Shown here: piece after piece, positions 12,544-31,063 of the stretch
Layout: every line of letters begins with the position of its first letter
How positions within the stretch are numbered: the first letter of the stretch is position 1
Assembly: GCA_963840935.1 (NCBI GenBank)
Contig: CAWJAS010000001.1
Coordinates: forward strand, 645,834 to 704,789
Length of the DNA stretch: 58,956 nucleotides
Source of the DNA: Candidatus Magasanikiibacteriota bacterium
Lineage (GTDB): Bacteria; Patescibacteriota; Patescibacteriia; Magasanikbacterales; GWA2-37-8
Reading direction: 5' to 3'
Translations under genes and position numbers: made by a program
The notes under the pieces: generated by a model
What the model saw: the letters and a program-made list of their open reading frames with translations, nothing else
Database searches by the model: none
Told to the model about the DNA's origin: nothing

Positions 12544-14587
12544 TTACAAACTCATAATGACAATATCCTTCTTACCGTCGAAATTAATATCGACCGACTG
12601 AACCATGGCATTACCCCCGCCAAAAATTCCCCCGACTGTAAATTCCGATATTTTTTTTCCTTGGGCGTCAAAAATTCTAATCGGCATATTTTTGCCTGTC
12701 ATCGCGGACACAATTATCTCATCTTTACCGTCTCCGGTAAGGTCACCGGTGGCCACATAAATCCCACCTTTATAGGTTTTTGTGTAGGGATAAAATCTTT
12801 TTGTTAATTTTGATACCCTATTATCATAAATTAAAACTTCCGCTGTTTTTCCGATACCCGTGCCAATAATAATATTACCGGCCTGACCCGGGCCATTTAA
12901 TCTTGCAGTCGCAACTGAAAGTCCGCCAAAATATCCTTTCGGATCAAACGGACTATACCCTCCTTGCATGGTAGCGCCGTGATAGTTGTACATTATGATT
13001 TTTCCACCGTCGCTTGGTGTAATAACGATTTGATTTTCTAACTGATTTTCAAAAAGAAGATTGGTGGCAATATTTATCGAACCTTTATAATTTCCTCCGT
13101 ATGGATAGTCGGAAAACCAATTTTCGCCACTGCTATTTGTTATTTCAAATTTTGGTCCGACCGCCACAACGGTTTCTTCTCCCGCTTGGCCATCCAAATC
13201 AGTATACAGAATCCTTGCTCCTCCCGGATATTTTTCATCATAAGCAAAAAATCCGTTTCTAACTCTGTTGCCGAGCATATCCATAAACTGAACAAAAGCG
13301 CCGTTAATAAACAAAACATTTTTAACGACTTCGTATGTTTTTAACATTACCAAACCGTCTTTGGCGGATACTTTAACTTTACTGACGATTCCTCCGTTAT
13401 TAATTGACGGGTCTTGTGAACCGATAATTTTTTCATACTCTCCACCCAAATCAACTTCGCGCGATTCCGCGAGTGAATTTACAACAGCCACGCCATTTGA
13501 AAATTCTCTTCGCCAAACATCTTTAACATAGTTACTCGCGCCGGTTTGCGAAACAGCCTCGCTTGTCGGTTCACCCAAATTAATATTGTATTCATCATAC
13601 CACCAATTTTCGCTATGATGATTTGAGCCGGCGTCATAAGCATAATATCCGTTTTCCATGAGAGCGCTCGTCAAGCCGAATCTCATTTGGCGATAATCTT
13701 TTTGAGCAGAAGCGGTGTTCAATGATGTATTACCAACAATGGCGATGCTTGATTTCTGGCTTGTTTCTACCGACGTACGATAAAGCTTCATTTTTTCTTC
13801 CCATGATAAATACGGTGCAGTGGTAAAATTTTCAAAATATATTCCATTGATATCACCGTAATAACCTTTATCTCCGTTGCCAACAATATAAATCGGCCGA
13901 CCGGCTTTCTCTCTGGTTAAGCGAAATAACTTTGACATACCGGCTCGCCAAGCAATATCCAATTTTGCCTTGTCATCGTTGCGCCCATTTTTGTCCGCAT
14001 CAATCGCCCCTCCGCTTACCCAAGATACATCGTACCAAGAATTGTCATAAAACACCCCATCCCACAAACCGGTGGAAAGCAATTTATCCACCACAAAATC
14101 AGAAAGATAGTCGGTCCAGCGATAATTACTTCCGCTTGGGTAATCGGTCACATTAAGCATCCGATTTGTTCCCCAAAAAATAACAAAACTGTTACTTTGG
14201 TCTTTAAGCCACATGTCATCGGTGATACCCGATAATTGCTGTTTAAAAAGACCGTTCGGAGTCGTATCCCAAATTTTATGCATCTCTACAGGGAATTCTT
14301 GAGAGGCAATGTAAACTAAAATCTTTATATCGGGATTTATCCGTCGAATTCTGCTTGATTTGCTCGGCGCTATTTTGTTGCGCTAGCATATGCAAAATCA
14401 AAACATCAAAACGAGCCAAATTATTTGCTTCATCAGACCAAATAGGCGTCTTCAAATAAAAATTCGCCACGCGCGGATATTTTTGTTCCTGTGCCCCTGC
14501 AAAAGTCGGCGAGAATAATAAAAAAAACAGGCCTGTTAAAGCCAGGCCGACAAAATATTTGCTAATTTGCCTGTCTCTTAACTTCAT
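12544..14587 (-). pseudogene. Secreted glycoside-hydrolase-like TIM-barrel plus FG-GAP/VCBS repeat protein, interrupted by one frameshift near 14340
   Basis: ORF 14276..14587 supplies a signal peptide and YPRVANFYLKTPIWSDEANNLARFDVLILHMLAQQNSAEQIK. The sense continues in another frame as RIRRINPDIKILVYIASQEFPVEMHKIWDT, joining ORF 12544..14283. The C-terminus has GDLTGDGKDEIIV and DINFDGKKDIVI FG-GAP-like repeats. Confidence 0.55.
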
Positions 14588-14643: not shown

Positions 14644-15858
14644 CTATTTTTTTATGAGTTGATTATACATTTTTTTCAGTTGCACGTAATAATCATCCGC
14701 CCGATGATGAGAGCCAATATAATTAAGCGCGTTCAGGCGCAAAGAGAAATCAGATGATTTATCCAAAGCCTCTTTCAAATTATTATCATCAAAATCAAAC
14801 AAAACACCGCCACCGGATGAATCAACCAATTCACTCAAAGCGCCACGATTTGAAGCAACAACCGGCAATCCCTTAGCCATTGATTCAATGGCCGTTAATC
14901 CAAAAGTTTCATAACCGACACTTGGTATAATCACAGCCGTAATATCGCGTGCCATTTCGAATATTTTTTCTTTTGGCATTTGTCCGCGTAAATATATATT
15001 TTTCATTTGGGAACTGTCTATCACATCCTTTATTTCTTCGTATAATGGCCCTTCACCAAAAATTTCCAAATTGCTTTTAATATTATTATTTATCCACCAC
15101 TGAACCAGCTGGTCTATTCCCTTTTCTTTTGATAAACGGCCAATGTAGGCAAAGCCTGGTTTGCTTGGCACCGGATATGGCTCATCAACAATTCCAAAAT
15201 CAGACGGTAAAAAATGCGGTAAAACCCGAATTTTATTTTCCGGCCAACCAAATTCGACAAATTTATCTTTTACAAACTCGCTCGGAGCAATATACAAATC
15301 AATATAATTTTCGTAATACTTTTTGGCGTGATGAATATACGCTTCAAGGGAAGCCCAGGCGCTTTGCGCCAAAGAATTATGAACACAACGATGTTTGGCA
15401 CACTCAATATATTTTTCACCTTTACATCTCTCACACGGCGCGCCTTCAGTAAACAATGAATAATTCGGGCAAATCGCTTTCCAGTCGTGCAAAGTCATAA
15501 CAGTTGGAATGCCAGCCTTTTTCAAGGCGGTCAAAATCGATGGCGACAAATGATGATAAAACAAATGAAGATGAGCAATATCCGGTTTTTCTTTTTTGAT
15601 AAGTGCGGTGATTTTTCTTTTTGCCTCGAATGAATATATTATTCTAAACATGTTTACGAATGACTTCGCGGTTAATTTTCCGAATTCCGCATTGGAAACA
15701 AAAAATTTTTCATATTCACTCGATTGGTTGCGCTTATCACGCATTGAAAAAACACTAACTTCATCGCCGTTTTTTTTCAACAAATCACACAAATCAAAAA
15801 AATGATGGTCGGCTCCGCCACGACGATAAAAAAATTTATTAACTTGAAGTATCTTCAT
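14644..15858 (-). CDS. Glycosyltransferase family 4 (GT-B, group 1)
   Basis: MKILQVNKFFYRRGGADHHFFDL N-terminus and an E-x7-E-type C-terminal half (PSVGYETFGLTAIESMAKGLPVVAS). Confidence 0.75.
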   Translation of the reverse strand: MKILQVNKFFYRRGGADHHFFDLCDLLKKNGDEVSVFSMRDKRNQSSEYEKFFVSNAEFGKLTAKSFVNMFRIIYSFEAKRKITALIKKEKPDIAHLHLFYHHLSPSILTALKKAGIPTVMTLHDWKAICPNYSLFTEGAPCERCKGEKYIECAKHRCVHNSLAQSAWASLEAYIHHAKKYYENYIDLYIAPSEFVKDKFVEFGWPENKIRVLPHFLPSDFGIVDEPYPVPSKPGFAYIGRLSKEKGIDQLVQWWINNNIKSNLEIFGEGPLYEEIKDVIDSSQMKNIYLRGQMPKEKIFEMARDITAVIIPSVGYETFGLTAIESMAKGLPVVASNRGALSELVDSSGGGVLFDFDDNNLKEALDKSSDFSLRLNALNYIGSHHRADDYYVQLKKMYNQLIKK

Positions 15859-17344
15859 AAACTATTTTTTTTACTTCGGGTTCACGCCACAAAAACCGCA
15901 AACCGGCCAAGGCCAGCCACCACCAAATGACAAATAAATTAATATCCCAATAAACGGAAATAGAGAATCCCACGATAAATAAAAGAGCAATACTTGTAAA
16001 TGAAAAAAGTTGGCGAGACTCGGCGATATTTTCACCCAATAAATCTTCACGTGATTTCAAAAAACGATAAAGGAGATAAATAAACCACTCGACTATGGCG
16101 ATTAAACCGATGATACCCAGTTGATATAAAATTCCAAGGTAATCGTTATGAATTTCGCGCAAAGCAACGTGGAACGGCCAGTTATCGTCCAATCCGGATA
16201 TTTCATAACCGAGTCCAAGACCAAAAAACGGATGCGTAAGCCAAGAGGTATAACCGACTTTCCAAACAGATAAGCGCCAGCGGAAACTAGAATCATCTCC
16301 GCTCACAATATTACTGACACTTGTTCTTTCTTGCAAAACCGTTGAGGTCTGATTGATTGTTTCTCCGGCTGAATCACCATGCAAAATCTTTCCTCCAAAT
16401 GAGTAGAGCGAAATTAGAGCAAAAGAAAATACGGCAACAATGGCGATTGCTTTCATAAATCTCAACCGTAAACGAATGCCGGGCAAGAAAATTAACCAAA
16501 AAACAAAAACAAAAATTAAAGCGATCCACAAATGCCTGACTAAAGAAACAATAAAAGCCAAACCGGACAGCGACAAGGCCGAAAAAATTAAAAATGTTTT
16601 CATTTTGCCAAATTTATTTTTTGCTTCCTGAAAGAGATACATTGATAGTAAGATAAAGAAAAATATAGCTAAATAAAAAACATGCGTACCAGCGATTAAT
16701 CTTTCACCGACTGTTGACAGCGGTGTGTATTCACTCCACAAACCTTTGCCGGCAATAAGTCCATAAAATAAAAATATAAAAAGACCGCACCCCCCGACGA
16801 CAAGCCAACTAATAAACTGTTGCCATTTTTCTTTTGAAACCAGCGTGGCGGAGCATATAAAATATAAAATGGCGTAAAGAAAATAATTTTTGTAAGTGCC
16901 AAAAGCAAATGCCATATCAAGGTTTCTTATAAAGGCCGTGGCAAAACCAATGGTGCAAATCGCGCCAAAAACAAGAATAAACCAATCAAGCGGATGGTTT
17001 TTCCATTTTAGATTGCCTTCCAAAAATCTGGCTCCAAGAGATAAAAGCAAAAACAATATACAAAAATCCAAAGGATATATTTTGTAAATATTCGCTCCAA
17101 TTTCCAACGGCAACAGCGTAAAATGCCGTTCAAACCACATAGTGCAAATAAAAATAACGGCTAACCCGGCCGTGGGGCGCATTATTGTGGCCAAAAAAAC
17201 AAGAGTTAAAGCAAAAAAATACAGCAATATTGACTGGCCTAAAAATAAAGTGGCAATAACAAAAACAGACATTGATACGACTGCTAAAATCGTCCAAAAA
17301 ACATCTTGTTGGGCTTCATTTTTTATGGGAAAGAATTTGACCAT
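15839..17344 (-). CDS. O-antigen ligase / Wzy-like polytopic membrane protein
   Basis: About 12 TM segments and a Wzy_C-like motif HNDYLGILYQLGIIGL. The ATG at 17344 (MVKFFPIKNE) is preferred over the track start at 17404. Confidence 0.65.
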   Translation of the reverse strand: MVKFFPIKNEAQQDVFWTILAVVSMSVFVIATLFLGQSILLYFFALTLVFLATIMRPTAGLAVIFICTMWFERHFTLLPLEIGANIYKIYPLDFCILFLLLSLGARFLEGNLKWKNHPLDWFILVFGAICTIGFATAFIRNLDMAFAFGTYKNYFLYAILYFICSATLVSKEKWQQFISWLVVGGCGLFIFLFYGLIAGKGLWSEYTPLSTVGERLIAGTHVFYLAIFFFILLSMYLFQEAKNKFGKMKTFLIFSALSLSGLAFIVSLVRHLWIALIFVFVFWLIFLPGIRLRLRFMKAIAIVAVFSFALISLYSFGGKILHGDSAGETINQTSTVLQERTSVSNIVSGDDSSFRWRLSVWKVGYTSWLTHPFFGLGLGYEISGLDDNWPFHVALREIHNDYLGILYQLGIIGLIAIVEWFIYLLYRFLKSREDLLGENIAESRQLFSFTSIALLFIVGFSISVYWDINLFVIWWWLALAGLRFLWREPEVKKIVYEDTSS

Positions 17345-17392
17345 ATAATAATTATTACACGAATAATTATACAATAAACACGCATAAAATAC

Positions 17393-17417
17393 AAAACCCG
17401 CCAAGAAGGCGGGTTTT
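17393..17417. terminator. Bidirectional hairpin terminator at the left island border
   Basis: aaaacccgcc-aagaa-ggcgggtttt: a GC stem flanked by an A-run and a T-run. Confidence 0.6.
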
Positions 17418-17461: not shown

Positions 17462-17514
17462 TGATGATAGCCTGCCTCGGAGAAACCCGAGGCAGGTTGA
17501 TAGGAATGAACGAA

Positions 17515-20500
17515 CTAGGGAGTGTATTCCGTGAGGAAACCCTCGGACAGGCACGACCGGTAGTTGACCGGGTCGGTCTCGTCGCAGAGAGGGTTACTCA
17601 GGCACTCTTCGTAGGAAGGAAGCGAAGCCCAGTCGGACTGATCGGTCAGACAGCACTCGGGGAGAGGCTGTTCGTCGGCGCAAGTGTCGGGCCACACACC
17701 GCAAAGCGGCATGGACACGCCATCTTCGTACTCCCACATGGCGGGAGACCAGTACTCGCAACCACCGTCGTCGTAGTTGTTGCAGGTGGTGTTGTCGGTG
17801 GAGCCGTCCTTGTCGGGATCGTAATCCCAGCAGAACAAGTACTCGCCGATTGCCGGTTCGGGAAGCGGATAGCAGACTCTCGAGTCGCGTCCGCAAACCT
17901 CACCATCCGCGCAGTCGGTTGCATCGATGCATTCGACGCAAACGTTATCCAAGCAAAGAAGGTCTCCGAGACAGTCATCATCAATCCAACACTCTTCGGG
18001 ATCAGTGTCCGAATCCGTGTCGGTGTCAGAGTCAGTATCGGAGTCCGTATCGGAATCCGTATCCGCGTCGGTGTCGGCATCCGTGTCGGCATCCGTGTCG
18101 GAATCCGTGTCGGAATCCGTATCCGCGTCGGTGTCGGCATCAGCGCCACCGTCCACGCCTCCATCCGTCTCACTGCAAGTCGATTCCGAATCGCAGTAGA
18201 GACCGTCGTCACAAGGATCGACCGGAGGAGAAGCGCACGGCTCGTCGAGTTCGCCGACGCAAGTGCCGAAGTCGCTCACGTTCTCGCAGATATAACCGCA
18301 ATCAACGCAAACCGGGTCGTCACTCACCATGGCGCAAATGCTGTTCGCGCCACAGAAGTCGAGGAATTCCGATTCACTCGTTACCGCGCCGTTGCAGATC
18401 GGCGAGGCACCACCGCAGAAACGATGGAACGTGAACCGAATCGGGTCGGCTCCACAGAGAACCCCGGTGCACTCATCGAACACAACGGAGTCGCATTCGT
18501 AAGAGCTATCGAGGAACTCATCGGCCGGGCAATACGGGCTAGACCCGTCACAATATTCATCCAAATCGCAGTCGCCTTCCGAAGGACGGCAAAGCGATCC
18601 GGAATCCAACGAATCGACGGGACAGCTCGCGGAAACACCGGTGCAATACTCGGTGAGATCACACTCACCTACCGCAGCACGGCACTCGGTGGTGTCCGGC
18701 AGGAACGAATCGTCCGGGCAGTCGCCCGCTCCGTCGCAGTACTCGTCCACGTCGCAAACGCCAGCCGAAGCATGGCAGATCACGGTGGTGGGCTCGTAGT
18801 TCGGGAGGCAGGTTCCCGCTCCGTCGCAGGTGTCGGCGCTGTCGCAGACATCGACGGTGGTATCACCGCAAGCGGTACCCGACGGCTCGAAGCCGTCGTC
18901 CGGGCAGTCAGCCGAGGAACCGGTGCAGAATTCGGCGACATCGCAGTCACCCACATCAGCACGGCACTCGGTGGTGTCCGGCAGGAACGAATCGTCCGGG
19001 CAGTCGCCCGCTCCGTCGCAGTACTCGTCCACGTCGCAAACGCCAGCCGAAGCATGGCAGATCACGGTGGTGGGCTCGTAGTTCGGGAGGCAGGTTCCCG
19101 CTCCGTCGCAGGTGTCGGCGCTGTCGCAGACATCGACGGTGGTATCACCGCAAGCGGTACCCGACGGCTCGAAGCCGTCGTCCGGGCAGTCAGCCGAGGA
19201 ACCGGTGCAGAATTCGGCGACATCGCAGTCACCCACATCAGCACGGCACTCGGTGGTGTCCGGCAGGAACGAATCGTCCGGGCAGTCGCCCGCTCCGTCG
19301 CAGTACTCGTCCACGTCGCAAACGCCAGCCGAAGCATGGCAGATCACGGTGGTGGGCTCGTAGTTCGGGAGGCAGGTTCCCGCTCCGTCGCAGGTGTCGG
19401 CGCTGTCGCAGACATCGACGGTGGTATCACCGCAAGCGGTACCCGACGGCTCGAAGCCGTCGTCCGGGCAGTCAGCCGAGGAACCGGTGCAGAATTCGGC
19501 GACATCGCAGTCACCCACATCAGCACGGCACTCGGTGGTGTCCGGCAGGAACGAATCGTCCGGGCAGTCGCCCGCTCCGTCGCAGTACTCGTCCACGTCG
19601 CAAACGCCAGCCGAAGCATGGCAGATCACGGTGGTGGGCTCGTAGTTCGGGAGGCAGGTTCCCGCTCCGTCGCAGGTGTCGGCGCTGTCGCAGACATCGA
19701 CGGTGGTATCACCGCAAGCGGTACCCGACGGCTCGAAGCCGTCGTCCGGGCAGTCAGCCGAGGAACCGGTGCAGAATTCGGCGACATCGCAGTCACCCAC
19801 ATCAGCACGGCACTCGGTGGTGTCCGGCAGGAACGAATCGTCCGGGCAGTCGCCCGCTCCGTCGCAGTACTCGTCCACGTCGCAAACGCCAGCCGAAGCA
19901 TGGCAGATCACGGTGGTGGGCTCGTAGTTCGGGAGGCAGGTTCCCGCTCCGTCGCAGGTGTCGGCGCTGTCGCAGACATCGACGGTGGTATCACCGCAAG
20001 CGGTACCCGACGGCTCGAAGCCGTCGTCCGGGCAGTCAGCCGAGGAACCGGTGCAGAATTCGGCGACATCGCAGTCACCCACATCAGCACGGCACTCGGT
20101 GGTGTCCGGCAGGAACGAATCGTCCGGGCAGTCGCCCGCTCCGTCGCAGTACTCGTCCACGTCGCAAACGCCAGCCGAAGCATGGCAGATCACGGTGGTG
20201 GGCTCGTAGTTCGGGAGGCAGGTTCCCGCTCCGTCGCAGGTGTCGGCGCTGTCGCAGACATCGACGGTGGTATCACCGCAAGCGGTACCCGACGGCTCGA
20301 AGCCGTCGTCCGGGCAGTCAGCCGAGGAACCGGTGCAGAATTCGGCGACATCGCAGTCACCCACATCAGCACGGCACTCGGTGGTGTCCGGCAGGAACGA
20401 ATCGTCCGGGCAGTCGCCCGCTCCGTCGCAGTACTCGTCCACGTCGCAAACGCCAGCCGAAGCATGGCAGATCACGGTGGTGGGCTCGTAGTTCGGGAGG

Positions 20501-23325
20501 CAGGTTCCCGCTCCGTCGCAGGTGTCGGCGCTGTCGCAGACATCGACGGTGGTATCACCGCAAGCGGTACCCGACGGCTCGAAGCCGTCGTCCGGGCAGT
20601 CAGCCGAGGAACCGGTGCAGAATTCGGCGACATCGCAGTCACCCACATCAGCACGGCACTCGGTGGTGTCCGGCAGGAACGAATCGTCCGGGCAGTCGCC
20701 CGCTCCGTCGCAGTACTCGTCCACGTCGCAAACGCCAGCCGAAGCATGGCAGATCACGGTGGTGGGCTCGTAGTTCGGGAGGCAGGTTCCCGCTCCGTCG
20801 CAGGTGTCGGCGCTGTCGCAGACATCGACGGTGGTATCACCGCAAGCGGTACCCGACGGCTCGAAGCCGTCGTCCGGGCAGTCAGCCGAGGAACCGGTGC
20901 AGAATTCGGCGACATCGCAGTCACCCACATCAGCACGGCACTCGGTGGTGTCCGGCAGGAACGAATCGTCCGGGCAGTCGCCCGCTCCGTCGCAGTACTC
21001 GTCCACGTCGCAAACGCCAGCCGAAGCATGGCAGATCACGGTGGTGGGCTCGTAGTTCGGGAGGCAGGTTCCCGCTCCGTCGCAGGTGTCGGCGCTGTCG
21101 CAGACATCGACGGTGGTATCACCGCAAGCGGTACCCGACGGCTCGAAGCCGTCGTCCGGGCAGTCAGCCGAGGAACCGGTGCAGAATTCGGCGACATCGC
21201 AGTCACCCACATCAGCACGGCACTCGGTGGTGTCCGGCAGGAACGAATCGTCCGGGCAGTCGCCCGCTCCGTCGCAGTACTCGTCCACGTCGCAAACGCC
21301 AGCCGAAGCATGGCAGATCACGGTGGTGGGCTCGTAGTTCGGGAGGCAGGTTCCCGCTCCGTCGCAGGTGTCGGCGCTGTCGCAGACATCGACGGTGGTA
21401 TCACCGCAAGCGGTACCCGACGGCTCGAAGCCGTCGTCCGGGCAGTCAGCCGAGGAACCGGTGCAGAATTCGGCGACATCGCAGTCACCCACATCAGCAC
21501 GGCACTCGGTGGTGTCCGGCAGGAACGAATCGTCCGGGCAGTCGCCCGCTCCGTCGCAGTACTCGTCCACGTCGCAAACGCCAGCCGAAGCATGGCAGAT
21601 CACGGTGGTGGGCTCGTAGTTCGGGAGGCAGGTTCCCGCTCCGTCGCAGGTGTCGGCGCTGTCGCAGACATCGACGGTCAGATCCCCGCAAGCGGTACCC
21701 GACGGCTCGAACAGTCCACCATCAGTGCAACATTCCGTTGCCGGGTCACACTGTGTGGCGCATTCTCCAACGCCTCCGGTTTCCACGCAACCGAACGCGC
21801 AATCGACGCAGGAAGCGTAGGTCGCGTTATCGGTCTCGCAGACCGAATCCATCGAGCAGGCGTCGATATCGGTCCAGCCGGAGCTGTTGATATCGCCGTC
21901 GCACGCATCGGAATCGCCGGCGCAGATCTGGAACAACACGTTCATTTGCGGAATTGCTCCGCACTCGGTACCGGTGCACTGGTACTCGGACCAGTTGTCG
22001 CAGACCGTACCGAAAGACAGGAACGTGCCGGTTGCGGTATCGCAACAGTCACCACTGGTGCACTGCGGATCCGTGTCCGTATCCGTGTCGGTGTCGGTAT
22101 CCGTATCGGTATCCGTATCGGTATCGGTGTCGGTATCGGTATCCGTATCGGTATCCGTATCGGTGTCGGTATCCGTGTCCGTATCCGTGTCGGTGTCGGT
22201 ATCCGTGTCCGTATCGGTATCCGTGTCCGTGTCGGCATCGCCACTTGACTGGCACTCGCCAACCAGACATCCGAACTCACAATCGTCGCACGTGGCGAAG
22301 GTTGAGATATCCGTTTCGCAAATGGCATCAACCGAGCAATCCTGAATGGTCACCCAGTCGCTCGAGAAGATCTCGCCATCGCAAAACTCGGAATCGCCGA
22401 CGCAGTACTGAACGTTGGCGCGCATCTGCGCGTCAGCTCCGCAATCACCTGACGAACACTGGAACTGAACCCAGCTATCGCAGGAATTCGAACTGTCCAT
22501 GAACGTTCCTGTTACGGTGTCGCAACAGTCGCCACTGGTACACTGCGGAGGGTCCGTATCCGTGTCGGTGTCCGTGTCGGTGTCCGTGTCGGTATCCGTA
22601 TCGGTGTCGGTATCCGTGTCGGTGTCGGTATCCGTGTCCGTATCGGTGTCCGTATCGGTGTCCGTGTCGGTGTCTGTATCGGTGTCCGTATCGGTGTCCG
22701 TGTCGGTGTCTGTATCGGTGTCCGTGTCGGTATCCGTGTCGGCATCACCGCCCACACAGAACGACTCGCTCAAGCAAGTCCCTCCTGTGGTGAACCCGTC
22801 CACGGCCGTACAGCACATGGCTATCGGGTAACGGATCGGGCAAGGGTCACCTGCCGGCTGGTAGGTCAGCAAGCACTCGGGCGTCGGGTCTGCGGTCGTC
22901 CAGATGTCTGGACTCCCGTACTCACACCCGTCGACAAAGACCTGTTCGCAAGAACCGCCGACAGTGAGCGAATCACCATCGTTGTCTTCGTCCCAGCAGA
23001 AGTTGGACTGGCCGGAGCCGGGCACGGGCATGTCGTAGCATGTGGTCGTGTCCACTCCGTAAACCTGTCCGTCGTCCGGACAGGCGACCGAAACGTCGTC
23101 GCAGATGAAATCGTACGGATCCGTGTCGGAATCCGTATCGGTGTCGGTATCGGTATCCGAATCGGTATCCGTGTCCGAATCCGCGTCGCTGTCGGAATCG
23201 GTATCCGAATCAGCGTCCACATCCGTTCCCTTGTACACCGACTGAGTGCTGTCGCCGGGATTCGGCGAAAGACACCCGGTCGCGCCCAAGAAAGCGCAAC
23301 AGACGAGCCAGAAAAACTTTCTCAT
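17515..23325 (-). CDS. Giant secreted lipoprotein with (Asp-Thr)n linkers and tandem disintegrin-like Cys-rich repeats
   Basis: 1936 aa. SD aaaggaggaaagaggaa precedes the ATG. Signal peptide plus lipobox MRKFFWLVCCAFLGATGC. Four D/T/S tracts, two CTSGDCCD domains, and 11 x 94-aa repeats containing CRADVGDCDVAEFCTGSSADCPDDGFEPSGTAC. GC3-rich codons on this strand. Confidence 0.9.
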   Translation of the reverse strand: MRKFFWLVCCAFLGATGCLSPNPGDSTQSVYKGTDVDADSDTDSDSDADSDTDTDSDTDTDTDTDSDTDPYDFICDDVSVACPDDGQVYGVDTTTCYDMPVPGSGQSNFCWDEDNDGDSLTVGGSCEQVFVDGCEYGSPDIWTTADPTPECLLTYQPAGDPCPIRYPIAMCCTAVDGFTTGGTCLSESFCVGGDADTDTDTDTDTDTDTDTDTDTDTDTDTDTDTDTDTDTDTDTDTDTDTDTDTDTDTDTDTDTDTDPPQCTSGDCCDTVTGTFMDSSNSCDSWVQFQCSSGDCGADAQMRANVQYCVGDSEFCDGEIFSSDWVTIQDCSVDAICETDISTFATCDDCEFGCLVGECQSSGDADTDTDTDTDTDTDTDTDTDTDTDTDTDTDTDTDTDTDTDTDTDTDTDTDTDTDTDPQCTSGDCCDTATGTFLSFGTVCDNWSEYQCTGTECGAIPQMNVLFQICAGDSDACDGDINSSGWTDIDACSMDSVCETDNATYASCVDCAFGCVETGGVGECATQCDPATECCTDGGLFEPSGTACGDLTVDVCDSADTCDGAGTCLPNYEPTTVICHASAGVCDVDEYCDGAGDCPDDSFLPDTTECRADVGDCDVAEFCTGSSADCPDDGFEPSGTACGDTTVDVCDSADTCDGAGTCLPNYEPTTVICHASAGVCDVDEYCDGAGDCPDDSFLPDTTECRADVGDCDVAEFCTGSSADCPDDGFEPSGTACGDTTVDVCDSADTCDGAGTCLPNYEPTTVICHASAGVCDVDEYCDGAGDCPDDSFLPDTTECRADVGDCDVAEFCTGSSADCPDDGFEPSGTACGDTTVDVCDSADTCDGAGTCLPNYEPTTVICHASAGVCDVDEYCDGAGDCPDDSFLPDTTECRADVGDCDVAEFCTGSSADCPDDGFEPSGTACGDTTVDVCDSADTCDGAGTCLPNYEPTTVICHASAGVCDVDEYCDGAGDCPDDSFLPDTTECRADVGDCDVAEFCTGSSADCPDDGFEPSGTACGDTTVDVCDSADTCDGAGTCLPNYEPTTVICHASAGVCDVDEYCDGAGDCPDDSFLPDTTECRADVGDCDVAEFCTGSSADCPDDGFEPSGTACGDTTVDVCDSADTCDGAGTCLPNYEPTTVICHASAGVCDVDEYCDGAGDCPDDSFLPDTTECRADVGDCDVAEFCTGSSADCPDDGFEPSGTACGDTTVDVCDSADTCDGAGTCLPNYEPTTVICHASAGVCDVDEYCDGAGDCPDDSFLPDTTECRADVGDCDVAEFCTGSSADCPDDGFEPSGTACGDTTVDVCDSADTCDGAGTCLPNYEPTTVICHASAGVCDVDEYCDGAGDCPDDSFLPDTTECRADVGDCDVAEFCTGSSADCPDDGFEPSGTACGDTTVDVCDSADTCDGAGTCLPNYEPTTVICHASAGVCDVDEYCDGAGDCPDDSFLPDTTECRADVGDCDVAEFCTGSSADCPDDGFEPSGTACGDTTVDVCDSADTCDGAGTCLPNYEPTTVICHASAGVCDVDEYCDGAGDCPDDSFLPDTTECRAAVGECDLTEYCTGVSASCPVDSLDSGSLCRPSEGDCDLDEYCDGSSPYCPADEFLDSSYECDSVVFDECTGVLCGADPIRFTFHRFCGGASPICNGAVTSESEFLDFCGANSICAMVSDDPVCVDCGYICENVSDFGTCVGELDEPCASPPVDPCDDGLYCDSESTCSETDGGVDGGADADTDADTDSDTDSDTDADTDADTDADTDSDTDSDTDSDTDTDSDTDPEECWIDDDCLGDLLCLDNVCVECIDATDCADGEVCGRDSRVCYPLPEPAIGEYLFCWDYDPDKDGSTDNTTCNNYDDGGCEYWSPAMWEYEDGVSMPLCGVWPDTCADEQPLPECCLTDQSDWASLPSYEECLSNPLCDETDPVNYRSCLSEGFLTEYTP
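18676..21711 (-). repeat. Perfect in-frame tandem repeat, 282-bp unit, about 10.8 copies
   Basis: The unit start agcacggcactcgg recurs at 18676 and 18958 (offset 282). The ORF track shows ten identical 91-aa and ten identical 83-aa shadow ORFs spaced exactly 282 nt. The last copy diverges after 21678. Confidence 0.95.
22067..22238 (-). repeat. (Asp-Thr)n coding tract (degenerate GAY-ACN hexamer repeat)
   Basis: Plus-strand gtccgt/atcggt/gtcggt iterations that translate as DTDTDT... on the minus strand. Approximate bounds. Confidence 0.85.
22550..22745 (-). repeat. (Asp-Thr)n coding tract, second long copy
   Basis: Same degenerate hexamer pattern, about 32 DT dipeptides. Approximate bounds. 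Confidence 0.85.
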
Positions 23326-23628
23326 TTCCTCTTTCCTCCTTTTGCATCATCACACTTGTTATAGGCAAACACGTATTTGCTCGCCTATTATTTCACTTCC
23401 TTCAATTTTCAAAGGACTTGTCATATTACTAAGCTCTATTCCGCTCGCGCAAAAAAAGCGCTACACGGCAGGGAGAGCAACCCTGTTTTCTTCCGGCAAA
23501 TTTTACCGAAAAAAAACAAAGCAAAAAACCAAAACATTTTTTGAGAGAGTTTTGGCTTATTTCTCGTAAATCAGCCGGCTCTCTCCCCTGCTAATTAATT
23601 GATTTTTACATCTTTATAATAACACTAA

Positions 23629-23657
23629 ATACTATCACTTTTACTCTAATTTGTCAA
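23629..23657 (-). promoter_or_regulatory. Sigma70-type promoter for the giant lipoprotein gene
   Basis: Minus strand: TTGACA (23657-23652), 17-nt spacer, TAGTAT (23634-23629). Confidence 0.55.
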
Positions 23658-23784
23658 TAGTTATAACGATTTTGTAATAAAATTATGACTTTGACGCGAA
23701 AACATAATGATTTAGCTTGTTTTAGCCAAAAAAATTCTACTTTAAGTAGAATTTTTTAGAACTTATTGATTATAATGACTCAAG

Positions 23785-24399
23785 TTAACTTTTTTTGTTC
23801 ATACCCGGCTTTTGTGAATTTATATTTCTCAAATTTCTGAAAGTTTCGTCATGACTTCCCTCTTCGATTTCCGTGCTGTTCAAATCATCGTCGAATTCAA
23901 TACCATCATAATCTAATGATTCGTTTTTAATTTTCTGTGATTTTGCCTGACTAATTACATCCCCCAACATATCCTTGTCATTCATAACAAGTGCCAATCC
24001 AATTTTATTGAATAATTCCGCGTGCAAATCGGGACGTATTTCTTCAAAAAAAGTTTGCGTGTGACCTTTAGCTTTTTTATACTTAAATATTCTTGCTAAA
24101 TTATTATATCTTTGAAATGTATCGGAAGATATATTGAAATTTTTTAATAATGTGTAAAATCCATTATCCATTGTAACCATCAATTTCTGTTCGGCAGTCA
24201 GTCCCCGCAAATATCTATCAGTAATTTTATTTTTTTGTTCTTGATAACGAGTGATTTCTTTTACAATCTCTAATTCACTAGAATTATCGCCCAATAATCG
24301 CATGCATCGAACTCCCGTCTCGGCCACATTATCGAGCATAACTTTATTATAAATTTTTATAGCTTCAATCAAATCGATAAACTTATAATTTTCCGGCAA
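23785..24399 (-). CDS. Hypothetical protein (AT-rich gene inside the island); frame is open upstream to the TAG of the preceding gene
   Basis: 204-aa ORF with a TTG start. The 28 codons upstream (DFSNYESDEEINFLSVTEEEGPAPRKIE) are in frame and stop-free back to the TAG at 24484-24486. Confidence 0.5.
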   Translation of the reverse strand: MPENYKFIDLIEAIKIYNKVMLDNVAETGVRCMRLLGDNSSELEIVKEITRYQEQKNKITDRYLRGLTAEQKLMVTMDNGFYTLLKNFNISSDTFQRYNNLARIFKYKKAKGHTQTFFEEIRPDLHAELFNKIGLALVMNDKDMLGDVISQAKSQKIKNESLDYDGIEFDDDLNSTEIEEGSHDETFRNLRNINSQKPGMNKKS

Positions 24400-24483
24400 T
24401 TCAATTTTTCTTGGCGCCGGACCCTCTTCTTCAGTAACCGACAGAAAATTAATTTCTTCGTCTGATTCGTAATTTGAAAAATC

Positions 24484-25203
24484 CTAAATCATTTTCTGAA
24501 ATAAATTATTGTAAATTGAATAAATAGTTCTAGCATCTCTTCTTGAATAGGCAGTTGACAAATCGTCAATGATATTTTTTATCTCTTCCGTTTCCAAAGC
24601 TTGGGTTCCCAAATTATCAATAATAATTTTTCTTGCCATCTCATTTGCTTTGTCATATAAAGCACCTTGGTCCATATCTTCCATGGTTTCTTGTTTTTTT
24701 ATAACATCAACCGCTAAAGGGTTTTCTTCCAGATAATCTTTATAATCTGATGGTAATGGATTAAAAGCATTCCCGGTTGCCGGAATCCTTTTTTTATATT
24801 TCGGTTCCTTAATTAATTCACGCAAAAGACCGGCTGACATTTTTAATAATACCAAATCATGTGTCGCCAATTTTTCTTTGGCTTCACGAACAATACGCTC
24901 AACATAATCGTCCATTTGCTCGGTCTCGTCTTTTTCTTGATGATCTGAATTAAGACCGGTTGCGCCTGCTTCCAATGAAACGGCGTTTAAACTAGAAGCC
25001 AACAAAACACCGGCAATCCAAGCTTTCCATTTTGTACCAATCTCTGGCAAAAATTCTTTTTTATTATTATCGCCTGATGCTCGACTGACTAAATCAAGGG
25101 TTTCATTTCTTGAAACTTCAAAAGTTGTATCTACAATTTGCCTCCCAACACTTTTTTTGGTTGCAAATATTTCAGCGTTATTTATGCTTTTTCCTTCCCG
25201 CAT
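24484..25203 (-). CDS. Hypothetical single-pass membrane protein (AT-rich gene inside the island)
   Basis: 239 aa with one hydrophobic segment, WKAWIAGVLLASSLNAVSL. No SD. Confidence 0.5.
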   Translation of the reverse strand: MREGKSINNAEIFATKKSVGRQIVDTTFEVSRNETLDLVSRASGDNNKKEFLPEIGTKWKAWIAGVLLASSLNAVSLEAGATGLNSDHQEKDETEQMDDYVERIVREAKEKLATHDLVLLKMSAGLLRELIKEPKYKKRIPATGNAFNPLPSDYKDYLEENPLAVDVIKKQETMEDMDQGALYDKANEMARKIIIDNLGTQALETEEIKNIIDDLSTAYSRRDARTIYSIYNNLFQKMI

Positions 25204-25270
25204 ATTTATAGAATATTATAATTATTCATTATTATTTTATAATATCTTTTTTATTGTTATTTTGCAAACA

Positions 25271-25296
25271 AAAAATCCCGGCACAAGGCCTGGATT
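25271..25296 (-). terminator. Hairpin terminator after the 509-aa lipoprotein gene
   Basis: aatcc-cggc-acaag-gcc-tggatt, an imperfect stem. The A-run at 25270-25275 is a T-run on the minus strand. Confidence 0.45.
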
Positions 25297-25307
25297 CTTT
25301 GATTCAT

Positions 25308-25337
25308 CTGAGATTGTCTGAGAGATAGACCATCTCA
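25308..25337 (-). repeat. Conserved 3'-UTR hairpin motif, copy 2
   Basis: ctgagattgtctgagagatagaccatctca, compare 17427-17461. Confidence 0.5.
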
Positions 25338-25409
25338 AGTGGATTGGCAGTTTGATGGTACTGCCGGACCGAAATGAGCGATAGGATAGAACAAGGAAGG
25401 GTGGAACCG

Positions 25410-26939
25410 CTACGGCTCCACGAAGGACTTCGCCCAGATGAGCGAGCTACCGACGTACTGGCCGGCGCACTCACGGTCGAAGGTGAAAGAGCCAGCGTGG
25501 GCGGGCACGCACCGTTCCACGATGGGGACGGCGTGCCCGTTCTGGCACTGGAAAGAGGCAGGAATCGAGGTAGACTCGATCACGGCCGGGCTGTACCCGT
25601 ACCCGTGATATTCACACGTCCCCCCGCCGGTATCGATGCGATAACCGCGGTCCCAGGTACCCAAGTTTCCACTCGGGCGGGACCCGCAGATACCGTCGAA
25701 CTTCCACCGGTAAGTGATACCTCCGATGGATTCGAACCGGGTCGAGATGATCCAGCACACCGAACTGCCGGAGCAGTTGGTGGACTGGGAGCAATCGGCG
25801 GGGATACAATTCCCTTCGATTGTGCAGGCATACCCGGGCGGGCACTGGTGATCCGGGTCGCCCCAGATGCACTCGCCTTCGTCCGCCACACACTCGCCAC
25901 CCACGCAGGTCTCGCCCGCGGGGCACGAGTAGTCGTTCCACTCCCCGCACTCGGAATCGTCGCAATAGGCGGTCGAGGTGGTGACGACGCAGTGCTCGGT
26001 CGAGGTGCACGTGTCGAGGGTCGTCCAGAATCCGCCGACACAGGCCTGTGCCTGGTCGCCCAGGCACCGGTAGGTGCCGGAGGTGCACTCGGAACTGGTC
26101 TGGCAGTGGCCGGCCACGCAGGTCTGCCCCGAAGGGCAGTCGGCGAGGTCGTACCAAGACCCAGCGACGCACAGCTCGACGGTGTTGCCGTCGCACTGTC
26201 GCGAGCCATCCGTGCAACCGAGTGCTTCACAGAAACCGTCCTCACAGAACTCTCCCGAAGGGCAGTCGGCGAGAACCTCCCAATGGCCGGCGACGCACAC
26301 CTCGACGGTGTTCACGTCGGCGCAACGGCGGTCGCCGTTGTCGCACTCGGAGCCGGCGACGCAAAATCCGTCGTCGCACACCTGCCCCGAAGGGCAGTCG
26401 TACGCGGTGGACCAGTCGCCATCGACGCAAATGACGAACGAATCCGAGTCGGTGCACTCGCGCGCATCGTCCTCACACTCGCTGTCGTCCACGCACTCGC
26501 CGTCCTCGCACGACTCCTCGCACTCGTACAGGTCGTACCAAGACCCGTCGAAGCAAATCTGGACGACCAGCTCGTCGCACTGCGTGTCCCCGTCCTCACA
26601 GGCCGGGGCGACGCAGGCGCCGTCGTCGCAGACATACCCCGAGGGGCAGTCGATCGGAATCGACCACTCACCGCCGGCGCAGACGACGAACGAATCCTCG
26701 TCGACGCACTCGCGCGCGTCGTTCTCGCACTCGTCCGTGTCACTGTCGCTGTCGGTGTCCGTGTCCGCGTCGGAGTCGGCATCGCTGTCGGCGTCCGAAT
26801 CGGCGTCGGTGTCCGCGTCACTGTCAGCGTCGGCGTCGGTGGCGCCCATGTAGGGACCGAGCCCATCGGGCTCCACACCACAGGCCGAAACCAGGACCAG
26901 AATCATCGAAGCGAAGATGACGTTCATGACGTTCTTCAT
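25410..26939 (-). CDS. Acidic Cys-rich repeat lipoprotein (module 1, gene 2)
   Basis: 509 aa. Signal peptide plus lipobox MILVLVSAC. A D/A/S/T tract. Six to seven ~42-aa repeats of the form C-x5-C-x7-9-C-x3-W-x5-CPSGxxC-x4-C. SD gaaagagg. Confidence 0.85.
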   Translation of the reverse strand: MKNVMNVIFASMILVLVSACGVEPDGLGPYMGATDADADSDADTDADSDADSDADSDADTDTDSDSDTDECENDARECVDEDSFVVCAGGEWSIPIDCPSGYVCDDGACVAPACEDGDTQCDELVVQICFDGSWYDLYECEESCEDGECVDDSECEDDARECTDSDSFVICVDGDWSTAYDCPSGQVCDDGFCVAGSECDNGDRRCADVNTVEVCVAGHWEVLADCPSGEFCEDGFCEALGCTDGSRQCDGNTVELCVAGSWYDLADCPSGQTCVAGHCQTSSECTSGTYRCLGDQAQACVGGFWTTLDTCTSTEHCVVTTSTAYCDDSECGEWNDYSCPAGETCVGGECVADEGECIWGDPDHQCPPGYACTIEGNCIPADCSQSTNCSGSSVCWIISTRFESIGGITYRWKFDGICGSRPSGNLGTWDRGYRIDTGGGTCEYHGYGYSPAVIESTSIPASFQCQNGHAVPIVERCVPAHAGSFTFDRECAGQYVGSSLIWAKSFVEP

Positions 26940-27137
26940 TTTGTTGCCTCTTTCTTTTTTTTCTAACCGTCCACATATAAATGAGACGGTATCGTTTAGA
27001 AACTTCTTACTTCTTGTTCTATTTTCAAAGAGCTTTTGGGGGCTCTTGTTTTCCCCTTTTTGGCCACGACTTAATCATGGCCACAATAAGGGAGGCCGAT
27101 TGCGGTTAAGCAACCGGCCAAAAAGGTAGGGGCGGCT

Positions 27138-28169: not shown

Positions 28170-28350
28170 TTTGTCCTCCGTTCTCGCGCATCGCGCGAGC
28201 GCGAATTGCGAGCCGTTGGTTTCTTCATTTTTTACCTACCTTTTATATTTTAAAGAGCGATTTCAGAGTTTTTTGCTCTGTTTGCGCCCGCTCTTGATTT
28301 GAGGCACAAAGTAAAGCAAATTACTACAAGCTTATTTAATTTAACAGATT

Positions 28351-28379
28351 AGTATATCATATTTTAGCACTTTTGTCAA
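28351..28379 (-). promoter_or_regulatory. Sigma70-type promoter (proximal) for module 1
   Basis: Minus strand: TTGACA (28379-28374), 17-nt spacer, TATACT (28356-28351). Confidence 0.55.
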
Positions 28380-28537
28380 TAGCCCGCTAAAACATTATTT
28401 TTTTGCTATAAAAAGCAAAAATCTCTCCTTTTGAGAGAGTTTTCGCCAATAAACACGGTAAAATGCCTTGTTTATTGGTTTTGGCTACGCCTCTCTCAAA
28501 CGTTGGCCAATTTATTGAGTTTTCAATTACGAGAAAT

Positions 28538-28566
28538 ATTATACCACATTGGTATGATTTTGTCAA
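28538..28566 (-). promoter_or_regulatory. Sigma70-type promoter (distal, inside left arm of the inverted repeat)
   Basis: Minus strand: GGGGGG-TTGACA (28566-28561), 17-nt spacer, TATAAT (28543-28538). Confidence 0.55.
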
Positions 28567-29674: not shown

Positions 29675-31063
29675 TTACTCTTCCAAATCCACCAAATAGG
29701 TGTAAAAGCTCTCGCCGACGCAGGGCCGTTCATCCCAAGAATACTCCGCGAAATCGGAGTCCTCGGTGACACAGCACTCGGGCTCGGGTTCGATCTCTCC
29801 ACCACAATCGATGGGATAGGACTCGCAGAGCGGGGTTGCGGTTTCGGGATCGTATTCCCAAATGGCCGGCGACCACATGTCACACTCGTCGAACGACTCC
29901 ATGTCGCAGGTGCCGCCCTCGGTCGTGTCGTCTCCGTCGCCGTCCTTGTCCCAGCACATCATGTACTCTCCCTCTTCCAGGGTCGGAAGCGGATAGCACT
30001 CGTGGCTGATCTTCCCGCAAACGTATCCGTCCGGGCAATCCTCGGCCGATTCGCACTCGGCTCCGGCATCACCGTCTCCGGCATCCGGACCGGCGTCGTC
30101 GTCGAGACCACCGTCCATTTCCGACTCGGTATCGGTTTCCGTGTCCGTATCCGTGTCGGAATCCGAATCTGTGTCAGCATCGCTGTCCGCGTCACCACCG
30201 TCGGCTCCGCCGTCAATATCCGACTCGGTGTCGGTATCGCTATCAGAGTCCGTGTCGGCGTCGGTGTCCGTGTCGGCGTCGGTGTCCGTGTCGGCGTCCG
30301 TGTCCGTATCCGAATCGGTGTCGGTATCGGAGTCGGAGTCGCTGTCGCTATCGGAGTCCGTGTCGGTATCCGTGTCCGTGTCCGAATCGGTGTCAGTATC
30401 GGAGTCGGTGTCCGTGTCGATGTCCGTGTCCGTATCCGTGTCGGTATCGGCGTCGGTGTCCGTGTCGGTGTCCGTGTCCGTATCCGTGTCGGTATCGGCG
30501 TCCGCTGAAGCGCAGTATCCGGTCCCGTCGCTGTGGAACAGACATCCGAATTCGCAATGAACGCAAGTGTTACTTGCGTAATCGCAAATATCGTCCGGAC
30601 CACAGGATTCCCATTCGACCAGAGGAATTTCCACCAGATCACCACCTACGCACGAGGCGCTATCACCCGTACAGTACTCTTCCACCAAATAGAGGTACTT
30701 GCCACCACCACATGACGGTTCTACACCGCAGTGAATGGTATAACTCTCACCGCATACTTCGGTCGGCATTTTGAAGTGACCGAAAGCATCACAGCAAGGA
30801 CCGCTGGAACAATCGGTATCCGTATCCGTGTCCGAATCGGTGTCGGTGTCGGTGTCCGTGTCGGTATCCGTATCCGTGTCCGAATCGGTGTCGGTGTCGG
30901 TGTCCGTGTCGGTATCCGTGTCCGTGTCCGAATCGGTGTCGGTGTCGGCATCGCCGTCGGGAATTCCGAAAACGGACTGGTTGGGGTCGCCCAGGTTGGG
31001 CGACAGACATCCGGCGATGAAGGCGACGAAAACGAAAACCACGAAAACGAAGTTCTTCGTCAT
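29675..31063 (-). CDS. Acidic (Asp-Thr)n Cys-rich lipoprotein, paralogue of the giant lipoprotein (module 2, gene 2)
   Basis: The ATG at 31063 has SD gaggagagag. MTKNFVFVVFVFVAFIAGCLSPNLGDPNQSV matches the giant protein N-terminus GCLSPNPGDSTQSV. It has one CSSGPCCD domain, long DT tracts, and a C-terminal CWDKDGDGDD...MWSPAIWEY...ECC domain shared with 17515..23325. Confidence 0.85.
   Translation of the reverse strand: MTKNFVFVVFVFVAFIAGCLSPNLGDPNQSVFGIPDGDADTDTDSDTDTDTDTDTDTDTDSDTDTDTDTDTDTDTDSDTDTDTDCSSGPCCDAFGHFKMPTEVCGESYTIHCGVEPSCGGGKYLYLVEEYCTGDSASCVGGDLVEIPLVEWESCGPDDICDYASNTCVHCEFGCLFHSDGTGYCASADADTDTDTDTDTDTDTDADTDTDTDTDIDTDTDSDTDTDSDTDTDTDTDSDSDSDSDSDTDTDSDTDTDADTDTDADTDTDADTDSDSDTDTESDIDGGADGGDADSDADTDSDSDTDTDTETDTESEMDGGLDDDAGPDAGDGDAGAECESAEDCPDGYVCGKISHECYPLPTLEEGEYMMCWDKDGDGDDTTEGGTCDMESFDECDMWSPAIWEYDPETATPLCESYPIDCGGEIEPEPECCVTEDSDFAEYSWDERPCVGESFYTYLVDLEE
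30120..30505 (-). repeat. (Asp-Thr/Ser/Ala)n coding tract
   Basis: Degenerate gtc-ngt / atc-ngt hexamers on the plus strand. Approximate bounds. A second tract lies at about 30813-30957. Confidence 0.8.

Follow-up and report, generated by a model that had tools for sequence, protein, structure and literature searches.

The disintegrin-like region of ADAM proteins and P-III snake-venom metalloproteinases (SVMPs) contains an arm, composed of the segments Ds, Da and Cw, that forms a rigid, continuous structure with disulfides and buried Ca2+ that cannot be stripped by EDTA (PMC4885070). Ca2+ site III of this arm, in the Da segment, follows the consensus CD(X)2(E/D)XCXG(X)4C(X)2(D/N) (PMC4885070). 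A second point of reference comes from the candidate phyla radiation (CPR), where 'Candidatus Peribacter' encodes large Cys-rich extracellular proteins with a mean length of 1,655 aa, signal peptides and a clustered arrangement in the genome; these proteins vary between strains, are reported to resemble the Myxococcus Cys-rich repeat and pappalysin only very weakly, and have been proposed to act in attachment (Anantharaman et al. 2016, PMC4736985). Here we describe a gene in a 58,956-nt stretch of DNA (the window) from a Candidatus Magasanikiibacteriota bacterium (contig CAWJAS010000001.1, positions 645,834 to 704,789). The open reading frame (ORF) lies at positions 17515–23325 of the minus strand and encodes, from an ATG start, a protein of 1936 aa, exactly as a first-pass annotation of these letters had given it. 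The centre of this protein (the target) is an array of 34 units homologous to the C-terminal half of the ADAM/SVMP disintegrin-like domain. Our preferred reading, held with slightly more confidence than doubt, is that the target is a lipid-anchored surface rod or tether of a CPR bacterium, stiffened by disulfides and Ca2+, on which domains without known relatives act as ligand-binding heads.

The target consists to 20.0% of Asp, 12.4% of Thr and 11.1% of Cys (215 residues), and every element of the architecture listed in the first-pass annotation (lipobox, tracts, Cys domains and eleven 94-aa repeats) is found in the ORF. At the DNA level, the array is a tandem repeat with a 282-nt period and 10.9 copies at 99% identity (positions 18637–21711; Tandem Repeats Finder). 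Nine internal copies are 100% identical; the first copy departs from these at 4 nt, and the eleventh does so in the last third of its length. Each 94-aa repeat comprises three four-Cys units of ~31 aa, here called A, B1 and B2; B1 and B2 agree at 17 of 32 positions, and A agrees with either of them at 12–13. The pattern CD-x2-[ED]-x-C-x-G-x3-4-C-x2-[DN] fits 34 units, so that the earlier count of about 36 was close without being exact. Given the Pfam E-values described below and the perfect tandem repeats, the array is far beyond chance.

The sole Pfam family matched by the whole protein is PF00200 (Disintegrin), which aligns in 23 stretches (258.6 bits, E = 4e-78). A single 94-aa repeat scores 43.9 bits against this profile, exceeding the curated gathering cut-off of 35.1; among single units only B2 (33 aa) is individually significant, with 27.1 bits and E = 7e-6, and B1 alone is marginal at 14.5 bits. 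All PF00200 stretches cover profile positions 37 or 48 to 75 of 75, i.e., only the C-terminal half. TIGR02232, DUF4215 and TSP_3 gave no match in the same scans. The TIGR02232/DUF4215 repeat was rejected as the identity of the unit, with no Pfam or NCBIfam match at E ≤ 10 and no CGNG in the target, and so was the thrombospondin (TSP) type 3 repeat (PF02412), also without a match at E ≤ 10; one bacterial relative of the array, P0005, does carry a TSP type 3 repeat. In phmmer searches of PDB sequences, the best matches are the P-III SVMPs bothropasin (3DSL) and catrocollastatin (2DW0), at E about 3e-5, with TECRADVGDCDVAEFCTGSSADCPDDGFEPSGTAC aligned opposite a stretch of 35 letters.

An AlphaFold2 (AF2) model of the segment A-B1-B2-A (125 aa), built from a 40-sequence alignment of bacterial homologues, has a predicted local distance difference test score (pLDDT) of 90.4 and a predicted TM-score (pTM) of 0.76, and consists mostly of turns and short hairpins. 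A pTM this high over four units argues for a fixed packing of one unit against the next. When this model was compared with PDB using Foldseek, the best 36 matches were all SVMP, ADAM or disintegrin chains, including VAP1, VAP2, ecarin, ADAM22, ADAM10, ADAM17, RVV-X, rhodostomin and acostatin; a Foldseek comparison with viral structures found nothing. The best alignments extend over 55–67 columns, with 31–42% identity and a root-mean-square deviation of 1.3–3.4 Å. Foldseek probability is 1.00 for most of the first 26 matches, whereas the E-values, at 4e-3 and weaker, are modest and TM(query) lies at 0.34–0.41, since no single ADAM aligns with more than about two of the four units. It is on the exclusivity of the match list, and not on the E-values, that the argument from this predicted structure rests. 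Profile, PDB sequence matches and modelled fold agree with the first-pass annotation, which had likened the units to the C-terminal half of the ADAM and venom domains. The outcome that it had named beforehand as counting against the likeness, namely no disintegrin match and a better match to an unrelated bacterial Cys-repeat family, is the opposite of what these searches returned.

Allowing X3–4 in its loop, the site III consensus occurs 34 times in the target: in 11 A, 11 B1 and 11 B2-type units and in one extra B unit. The exact X4 loop is present in 12 of these (the 11 B2-type units and the extra terminal B), and at the level of this consensus the Ca-binding proposed by the first-pass annotation is supported. 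The protein contains no CGNG or motif resembling Ca2+ site II (xCGNxxxExGExCD) of the Ds shoulder and no HExxH metalloprotease motif, and Reprolysin (M12B) and ADAM_CR gave no Pfam match at E ≤ 10. With the C-terminal half only, and without shoulder, Ca2+ site II or protease, the target is therefore not an ADAM-type disintegrin domain protein. Instead, its unit is homologous to, and works like, the Da part (plus probably the Cw part) of the ADAM arm, with which it probably shares a mode of action as a rigid spacer stabilised by Ca2+ and disulfides.

Homology to the disintegrin family brings up a reading in which the target is a released effector that, whole or as fragments cut at the D/T linkers, blocks or engages a host receptor as venom disintegrins do. 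DC fragments of SVMPs are bioactive in isolation (PMC4885070), and DCD and VGD tripeptides occupy the position of the ECD/RGD loop in the target. However, neither RGD nor KGD occurs in the protein, and the ECD-type loop of ADAMs, which contains Cys, is held by a disulfide and sterically shielded (PMC4885070). The lipobox, moreover, predicts that the protein is anchored to the membrane. Bacterial hosts are not known to have integrins, and we regard release as very improbable.

The array repeat is no rarity, being common in other bacteria. A word-indexed search with one repeat returned one fragment only; an exhaustive HMMER (phmmer) search, covering 1.84 billion cluster representatives, returned 4,655 proteins at E ≤ 1e-3 and 1,151 at E ≤ 1e-30. 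The top relatives (E = 6.5e-258 to 1e-84; 900–5,500 aa) contain 5–22 matching stretches at 41–57% identity, and matches to the array are 90–125 residues long at this identity. Named relatives are mostly 'hypothetical proteins' of Myxococcota or Planctomycetota, and the other names given are 'VWA domain-containing protein' and 'cysteine-rich repeat protein'. Their sources comprise Myxococcota, Polyangiaceae, Polyangiales, Sandaracinaceae, metagenome-assembled genomes (MAGs) of Deltaproteobacteria and Alphaproteobacteria, Phycisphaerae/Phycisphaerales and the oomycete Saprolegnia; examples are MGF1507929.1 (Myxococcota MAG, 1572 aa), UCE62348.1 and MFQ5494718.1 (Phycisphaerae) and HEX2880406.1 (Polyangiaceae). 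As in the target, PF00200 matches these arrays through its C-terminal part. In the relatives, the array is accompanied by cohesin, dockerin, VWA, PKD, TSP3, Dicty_CTDC or DUF4215 modules, as is typical of secreted or surface multidomain proteins.

In some relatives (P0012, P0074, P0013 and P0107) the array is preceded by a DUF4215/Ds-like segment of the form CGNG...GEQCDD...CC...C...F...CR; P0012 (MFQ5494718.1), for instance, carries CGNGITEPGEQCDDAN... directly ahead of its array, at residues ~200–260. These segments show that complete disintegrin-like domains, with both shoulder and arm, exist in bacteria. The Saprolegnia parasitica protein XP_012212568.1 (P0129) is among the top 150 relatives, a hint that the repeat has passed between domains of life. 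For disintegrin-like repeats in bacteria or in CPR, no description was found in the literature searched, and exact-sequence look-up found no database record of the target protein. The half-disintegrin tandem array is a large, database-visible and undescribed bacterial repeat family, of which the target is a new member.

Outside the array, the target has an N-terminal signal peptide, acidic dipeptide tracts and two further kinds of Cys-rich domain, named here CWD and CxSGxCC after their motifs (Table 1). Lipoproteins were recognised by an N-terminal basic residue, a hydrophobic core and a lipobox with Cys at position 15–35. In the target, K/R occurs within the first 7 residues, the signal peptide MRKFFWLVCCAFLGATG is followed directly by the predicted lipidation site C18, and the PROSITE-type pattern {DERK}6-[LIVMFWSTAG]2-[LIVMFYSTAGCQ]-[AGS]-C ends at this Cys. 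The same pattern fits two neighbouring lipoproteins of the high-GC island described below, and the first-pass reading of the target as a lipoprotein accords with it. Two features were absent from that annotation: the CWD domains at the N- and C-termini are homologous to each other, and residues 1612–1692 form a third, degenerate copy of the CTSGDCCD type. The distal CWD domain carries a DxDxDG-like acidic loop.

Table 1. Features of the target gene and of neighbouring ORFs (coordinates are positions in the window)
Feature	Residues	Position	Strand	Basis or remark
Promoter-like TTGACA-17-TAGTAT with TG		23629..23657	(-)	~300 nt upstream of start; consensus scan only, weak evidence
Shine-Dalgarno AGGAGG		23335..23340	(-)	9 nt upstream of ATG at 23325; read from sequence
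Signal peptide with lipobox GATG/C18	1-18	23272..23325	(-)	PROSITE-type lipobox rule; Cys and following LSPNxGDxxQSV kept in paralogue
D-[TSA] tract, 16 dipeptides	37-68	23122..23217	(-)	Pattern scan of protein
CWD Cys domain, copy 1 (FCWDEDNDGDS...)	70-193	22747..23118	(-)	35% identity to C-terminal copy, E = 6e-16; no Pfam match
(Asp-Thr) tract, 32 dipeptides	194-257	22555..22746	(-)	Tandem Repeats Finder and sequence
CxSGxCC 12-Cys domain, copy 1 (CTSGDCCD...FGC)	260-362	22240..22548	(-)	Alignment; no Pfam or PDB match
(Asp-Thr) tract, 28 dipeptides	363-418	22072..22239	(-)	Tandem Repeats Finder and sequence
CxSGxCC domain, copy 2	420-526	21748..22068	(-)	55% identity to copy 1
Repeat array: junction half-unit and 34 disintegrin-arm-like units (11 x 94-aa A-B1-B2 and one extra degenerate B unit)	527-1611	18493..21747	(-)	
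CxSGxCC-type domain, copy 3, degenerate	1612-1692	18250..18492	(-)	32% identity to copy 1; Cys columns kept
Short Cys-containing linker	1693-1728	18142..18249	(-)	Read from sequence
D-[TSA] tract, 23 dipeptides	1729-1774	18004..18141	(-)	Tandem Repeats Finder and sequence
Cys-rich lead-in (ECxxAxDCxDGxVC) and CWD copy 2 (FCWDYDPDKDG...MWEY...ECC)	1775-1936	17518..18003	(-)	49% identity to paralogue C-terminus
Split ORF		23785-25203	(-)	In-frame TAG at codon 240 divides low-GC 472-codon ORF into 239 + 204 aa
509-aa Cys-rich acidic lipoprotein		25410..26939	(-)	D-[AST] tract; about six ~45-aa Cys repeats (...DCPSGxVCDDGxC...); DCPxGxVC motif
Paralogue, 462-aa lipoprotein		29675..31063	(-)	D/T tracts, one CxSGxCC and one CWD domain (49% identity), same post-lipobox peptide; no array

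The two accessory domains are orphans. For the CWD domain, no relative was found in a 5.8-billion-protein database or among 185,579 GTDB species genomes, and for both CWD and CxSGxCC no relatives were found in JGI metagenomes and no match in a profile search of PDB. Likewise, (D[TS])n tracts, CWD and CxSGxCC occur in 0 of the 276 repeat relatives retrieved. The first-pass annotation had seen in the CCD...TG.F stretch an echo of the N-terminal half of the disintegrin domain, an identification that we reject: the CTSGDCCD segment has no PF00200 match, and its likeness to the SVMP sequence GDCCEQCKF...C is at motif level only. In a profile-profile comparison, the internal YCxGDSxxC is linked only weakly to the unit (hhalign probability 40%). 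For the D-[TS] tracts, the only NCBIfam matches are to the SD-repeat region of Sdr/Clf models, at 44–67 bits; set against cut-offs of 999–2500, these are low-complexity matches to the SD region only, and since LPXTG is missing as well, membership of the MSCRAMM family was rejected.

A DCPxGxVC-type motif of the 509-aa lipoprotein also precedes the CWD domain in both the target and the paralogue; the 509-aa protein itself has no significant Pfam or NCBIfam match (CBM_19, at 15.5 bits, is below cut-off). The target looks like a version of the paralogue whose ends were duplicated and into which a disintegrin-like array was inserted and recently amplified.

On the reading that we prefer, the target would be exported by Sec, after which lipidation of Cys18, predicted from the lipobox, would hold its N-terminus in the membrane. 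The acidic (Asp-Thr)n tracts would be extended, unstructured spacers by which the folded modules reach across the wall and past it, in analogy to the Ser-Asp region of Sdr/Clf proteins. Each of the 34 units would fold like the ADAM/P-III SVMP arm/wrist (Da/Cw), with Cys for two disulfides and one buried structural Ca2+ at site III, and the units would pack end to end into a continuous stiff rod of, as a rough estimate, tens of nanometres. Such a rod is suggested by the homology, by conservation of site III and by a pTM that is high from unit to unit. The rod would present the lineage-specific Cys domains, especially the distal CWD with its acidic loop, as likely ligand-binding heads, and these heads would attach to a host cell or a surface. 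The nine perfect copies suggest ongoing recombination and length variation, and recombination among these 282-bp repeats would change the length of the rod. An adhesin role is probable, and it is consistent with the role proposed for the Cys-rich proteins of CPR Peribacteria (PMC4736985).

Much of this anatomy could also belong to a structural envelope coat, i.e., a hydrated, rigid layer that has no defined ligand and sequesters divalent cations or nucleates mineral. The target has 488 Asp and Glu residues against 23 Lys and Arg, four long D-[TSA] tracts and 34 putative structural Ca sites, two more very acidic Cys-rich lipoproteins are encoded in the same island, and the homologous ADAM arm is a scaffold and not a binding site (PMC4885070). 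Against such a coat stand the distinct folded terminal domains, duplicated at both ends and common to the paralogue, which give the protein a stalk-plus-head look. Relatives, too, pair the array with interaction domains (VWA, cohesin/dockerin and PKD), and the Ca2+ at ADAM site III is structural and non-exchangeable, and hence a poor buffer (PMC4885070). We consider a coat unlikely, although it is the strongest competitor to the rod with binding heads.

The composition of the locus raises a different concern. The target gene has a GC content of 0.57–0.66 and a third-position GC content (GC3) of 0.64–0.78, compared with ~0.40 and 0.27–0.36 in its neighbours. This composition recurs in six more ORFs between 25.4 and 35 kb, and in the region 17500–35000 high GC (0.56–0.66; GC3 0.58–0.86) is limited to these seven ORFs. 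The intergenic spacers of this island have a GC content of 0.30–0.47, and two ORFs at 23785–25203 have a host-like GC3 of about 0.3. The island is an unusual gene-by-gene compositional mosaic in a genome of ~40% GC. Because the closest array relatives are in high-GC phyla, a horizontal origin of at least the array is plausible; the best relatives stand at ~50% identity, which indicates that no donor has been sampled. Neither an integrase nor a phage signature was seen when the island ORFs of at least 150 aa were scanned with Pfam.

Such a composition, with the closest repeat relatives in high-GC Myxococcota and Planctomycetota, could also mark a recently acquired foreign cluster of little or no function or, given nine copies with 100% identical DNA, an exact protein without a database record and public short-read contigs that break in the D/T tracts, an assembly artefact with an inflated repeat number. 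Public Logan assemblies, however, contain island genes in two independent runs, ERR15459710 and ERR12035938 (two island genes in the latter). A 7.1-kb contig of ERR15459710 holds, in order, the paralogue C-terminus, a 212-aa ORF, a 343-aa gene, the 509-aa gene, the 472-aa ORF and the first 65 codons of the target, with spacings identical to those in the window (1506 and 460 nt). As order and spacings are reproduced, the low-GC/high-GC junction at the 5' end of the target is real. The target ORF is intact across 5.8 kb and preceded by a strong Shine-Dalgarno sequence, while the confinement of high GC to ORFs separated by AT-rich, host-like spacers argues against a simple chimeric join. Flanking domains and D/T tracts that are common to three island genes and present in none of the 276 relatives point to evolution in this lineage. 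On balance, we find a functionless or artefactual cluster quite unlikely.

Several observations do weigh against a rod that carries binding heads. The disintegrin loop of ADAMs is buried, and their arm serves as a scaffold without binding ligands (PMC4885070); we therefore assign to the array a spacer role and not a binding role, and the array is in itself no evidence of adhesion. The AF2 model of the CWD domain, derived from a 3-sequence alignment, has a pLDDT of 44 and is unusable, so that a binding role for this domain is a guess. Within the array, unit A alone has no PF00200 match, and units A and B1 have X3, not X4, in the loop of the Ca site. The 212 extracytoplasmic Cys require oxidative folding, for which no system was seen in the window. 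Finally, the number of 11 copies is provisional, as it depends on a perfect tandem array of 2.5 kb; the ERR15459710 contig ends within D/T tracts on both sides, and independent short-read assemblies do not cross even these flanking tracts.

The surroundings of the target can be described from the remaining ORFs of the window. At the position of the split ORF, the ERR15459710 assembly has an uninterrupted 472-aa gene; the TAG at codon 240 is a strain-level nonsense mutation or a sequencing error. An alternative genetic code was rejected and the standard code applies, with TGA as the stop of 3 of 30 ORFs and TAG as the codon that breaks the split ORF. Two secreted proteins, at 27138–28169 (-) and 31326–32747 (-), are related through their N-termini (E = 1e-5), and each is encoded directly upstream of a gene for a Cys-rich acidic lipoprotein. 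Both have a signal of the signal peptidase I type, a coiled coil, a beta-rich C-terminal domain and a terminal Phe that resembles the signal of outer-membrane beta-barrels, an oddity given that CPR bacteria are putatively monoderm; the two proteins may act with the lipoproteins in anchoring. The upstream end of the high-GC island is occupied by a gene for an FHA-domain protein whose N-terminus is long and acidic/proline-rich (33897–34979, -), overlapped by an ORF (32969–33904, -) in which one membrane-spanning segment is apparent from the sequence, and both may be regulatory or secretion-associated. Beyond them lies a low-GC gene (35176–40044, -) for a Lys/Glu-rich protein of 1622 aa with a predicted coiled coil, a Gly/Ala-rich hydrophobic stretch and no Pfam family. 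A tmRNA (43085–43480, +; tag ANLFNKVKASVARAFSPAMSFAPVAA) and a tRNA-Asp(GTC) (45089–45163, -) follow at ~8–10 kb from the island edge, and no integrase was seen between this edge and the two RNA genes.

Immediately downstream of the target, the regions 12544–14283 (-) and 14644–17404 (-) encode a GHL15 and FG-GAP protein, a GT4/GT1 glycosyltransferase and a Wzy_C (O-antigen-ligase-like) membrane protein, which make up an envelope glycan cluster adjoining the gene for the Thr-rich, putative surface protein; the Wzy-like gene has no database record by exact-sequence look-up. O-glycosylation of the Thr residues in the tracts is conceivable in view of these adjacent glycosyltransferase and Wzy-like genes, but only as pure speculation. 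Elsewhere, the window contains common housekeeping genes of bacteria, namely those for MurB, MurC, IF3, PPDK, BipA, LigA, CysS, PilM and PilD besides the tmRNA and tRNA-Asp; both type IV pilus and envelope glycosylation genes are present in the window. In tblastn searches with PPDK, several Candidatus Magasanikbacteria matches (65–66%) and other Patescibacteria are among the best; the top match (69%) is a short contig labelled Gammaproteobacteria, which we treated as unreliable. By this one marker a CPR affiliation is likely, and the Magasanikbacteria/Patescibacteria affiliation of the gene fits the putative episymbiont named in the first-pass annotation.

Little is known about how the ultra-small CPR/Patescibacteria recognize and hold their hosts beyond type IV pili. 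If the target is a rod with orphan terminal domains, it is a concrete candidate for CPR attachment, accessible to expression, imaging and blocking. On a broader view, thousands of unannotated bacterial proteins contain the arm module of ADAM and venom proteins in long tandem arrays. These arrays offer a simple repeating system for studying the fold, and they bear on the origin of the animal disintegrin domain. A more far-reaching scheme, which we regard as doubtful, would make the ~31-residue Ca2+/disulfide unit an ancient iterable block: bacteria (Myxococcota, Planctomycetota and, through transfer, this CPR lineage) would build from it rigid rods of tunable length, the metazoan ADAM/SVMP shoulder-arm-wrist would be a short, diverged array of it, and the target, its rod fused to orphan heads and (Asp-Thr)n stalks, would be a physical host tether whose length varies between strains through recombination of the 282-bp repeats.

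Among known systems, the ADAM/P-III SVMP arm (VAP1, 2ERO/2ERQ; VAP2/catrocollastatin, 2DW0; bothropasin, 3DSL; ADAM22; ADAM10) shares its Cys spacing with the target units, and both are turn-rich and disulfide-stapled, the structure of the target being a model. The target differs in that the half domain is iterated 34 times, with a loop one residue shorter in two of the three unit types, and in that it is a bacterial lipoprotein, whereas ADAMs and SVMPs are type I membrane or venom proteins. The Myxococcus Cys repeat (TIGR02232/DUF4215, PF13948) is a bacterial disulfide repeat that accompanies the half-disintegrin array in some relatives and resembles the N-terminal (Ds) half of the disintegrin domain. 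Compared with the array relatives, the target has a three-unit period of 94 aa, while the two inspected in this respect (P0002 and P0012) have mostly two alternating unit types with a period of ~62–63 aa. No accessory architecture is shared: the target lacks cohesin, dockerin, VWA, PKD and TSP3 modules, and the relatives lack CWD, CxSGxCC and D/T tracts. The host of the target, moreover, is a low-GC CPR bacterium, unlike the high-GC phyla of the closest array relatives.

The SD region of the staphylococcal proteins SdrC, SdrD, ClfA and ClfB resembles the target in placing long acidic dipeptide tracts between anchor and folded domains, but the target has Asp-Thr tracts and a predicted N-terminal lipid anchor where MSCRAMMs have Ser-Asp tracts and C-terminal sortase attachment. 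The Peribacteria proteins share with the target a CPR origin, large size, a signal peptide, a very high Cys content and clustering in the genome, and are set apart from it by their description, in which a disintegrin-type unit, a lipobox and D/T stalks do not appear. What is special to the target is its Magasanikbacteria-like host, its (Asp-Thr)n stalks and its two orphan Cys domains. Not categorically new, the protein is as a whole a variant set apart by a lipoprotein anchor, Asp-Thr stalks, two orphan domains, a three-unit period, a CPR host and a high-GC island confined to genes, and it draws attention to a counterpart of the disintegrin arm that has been overlooked in bacteria.

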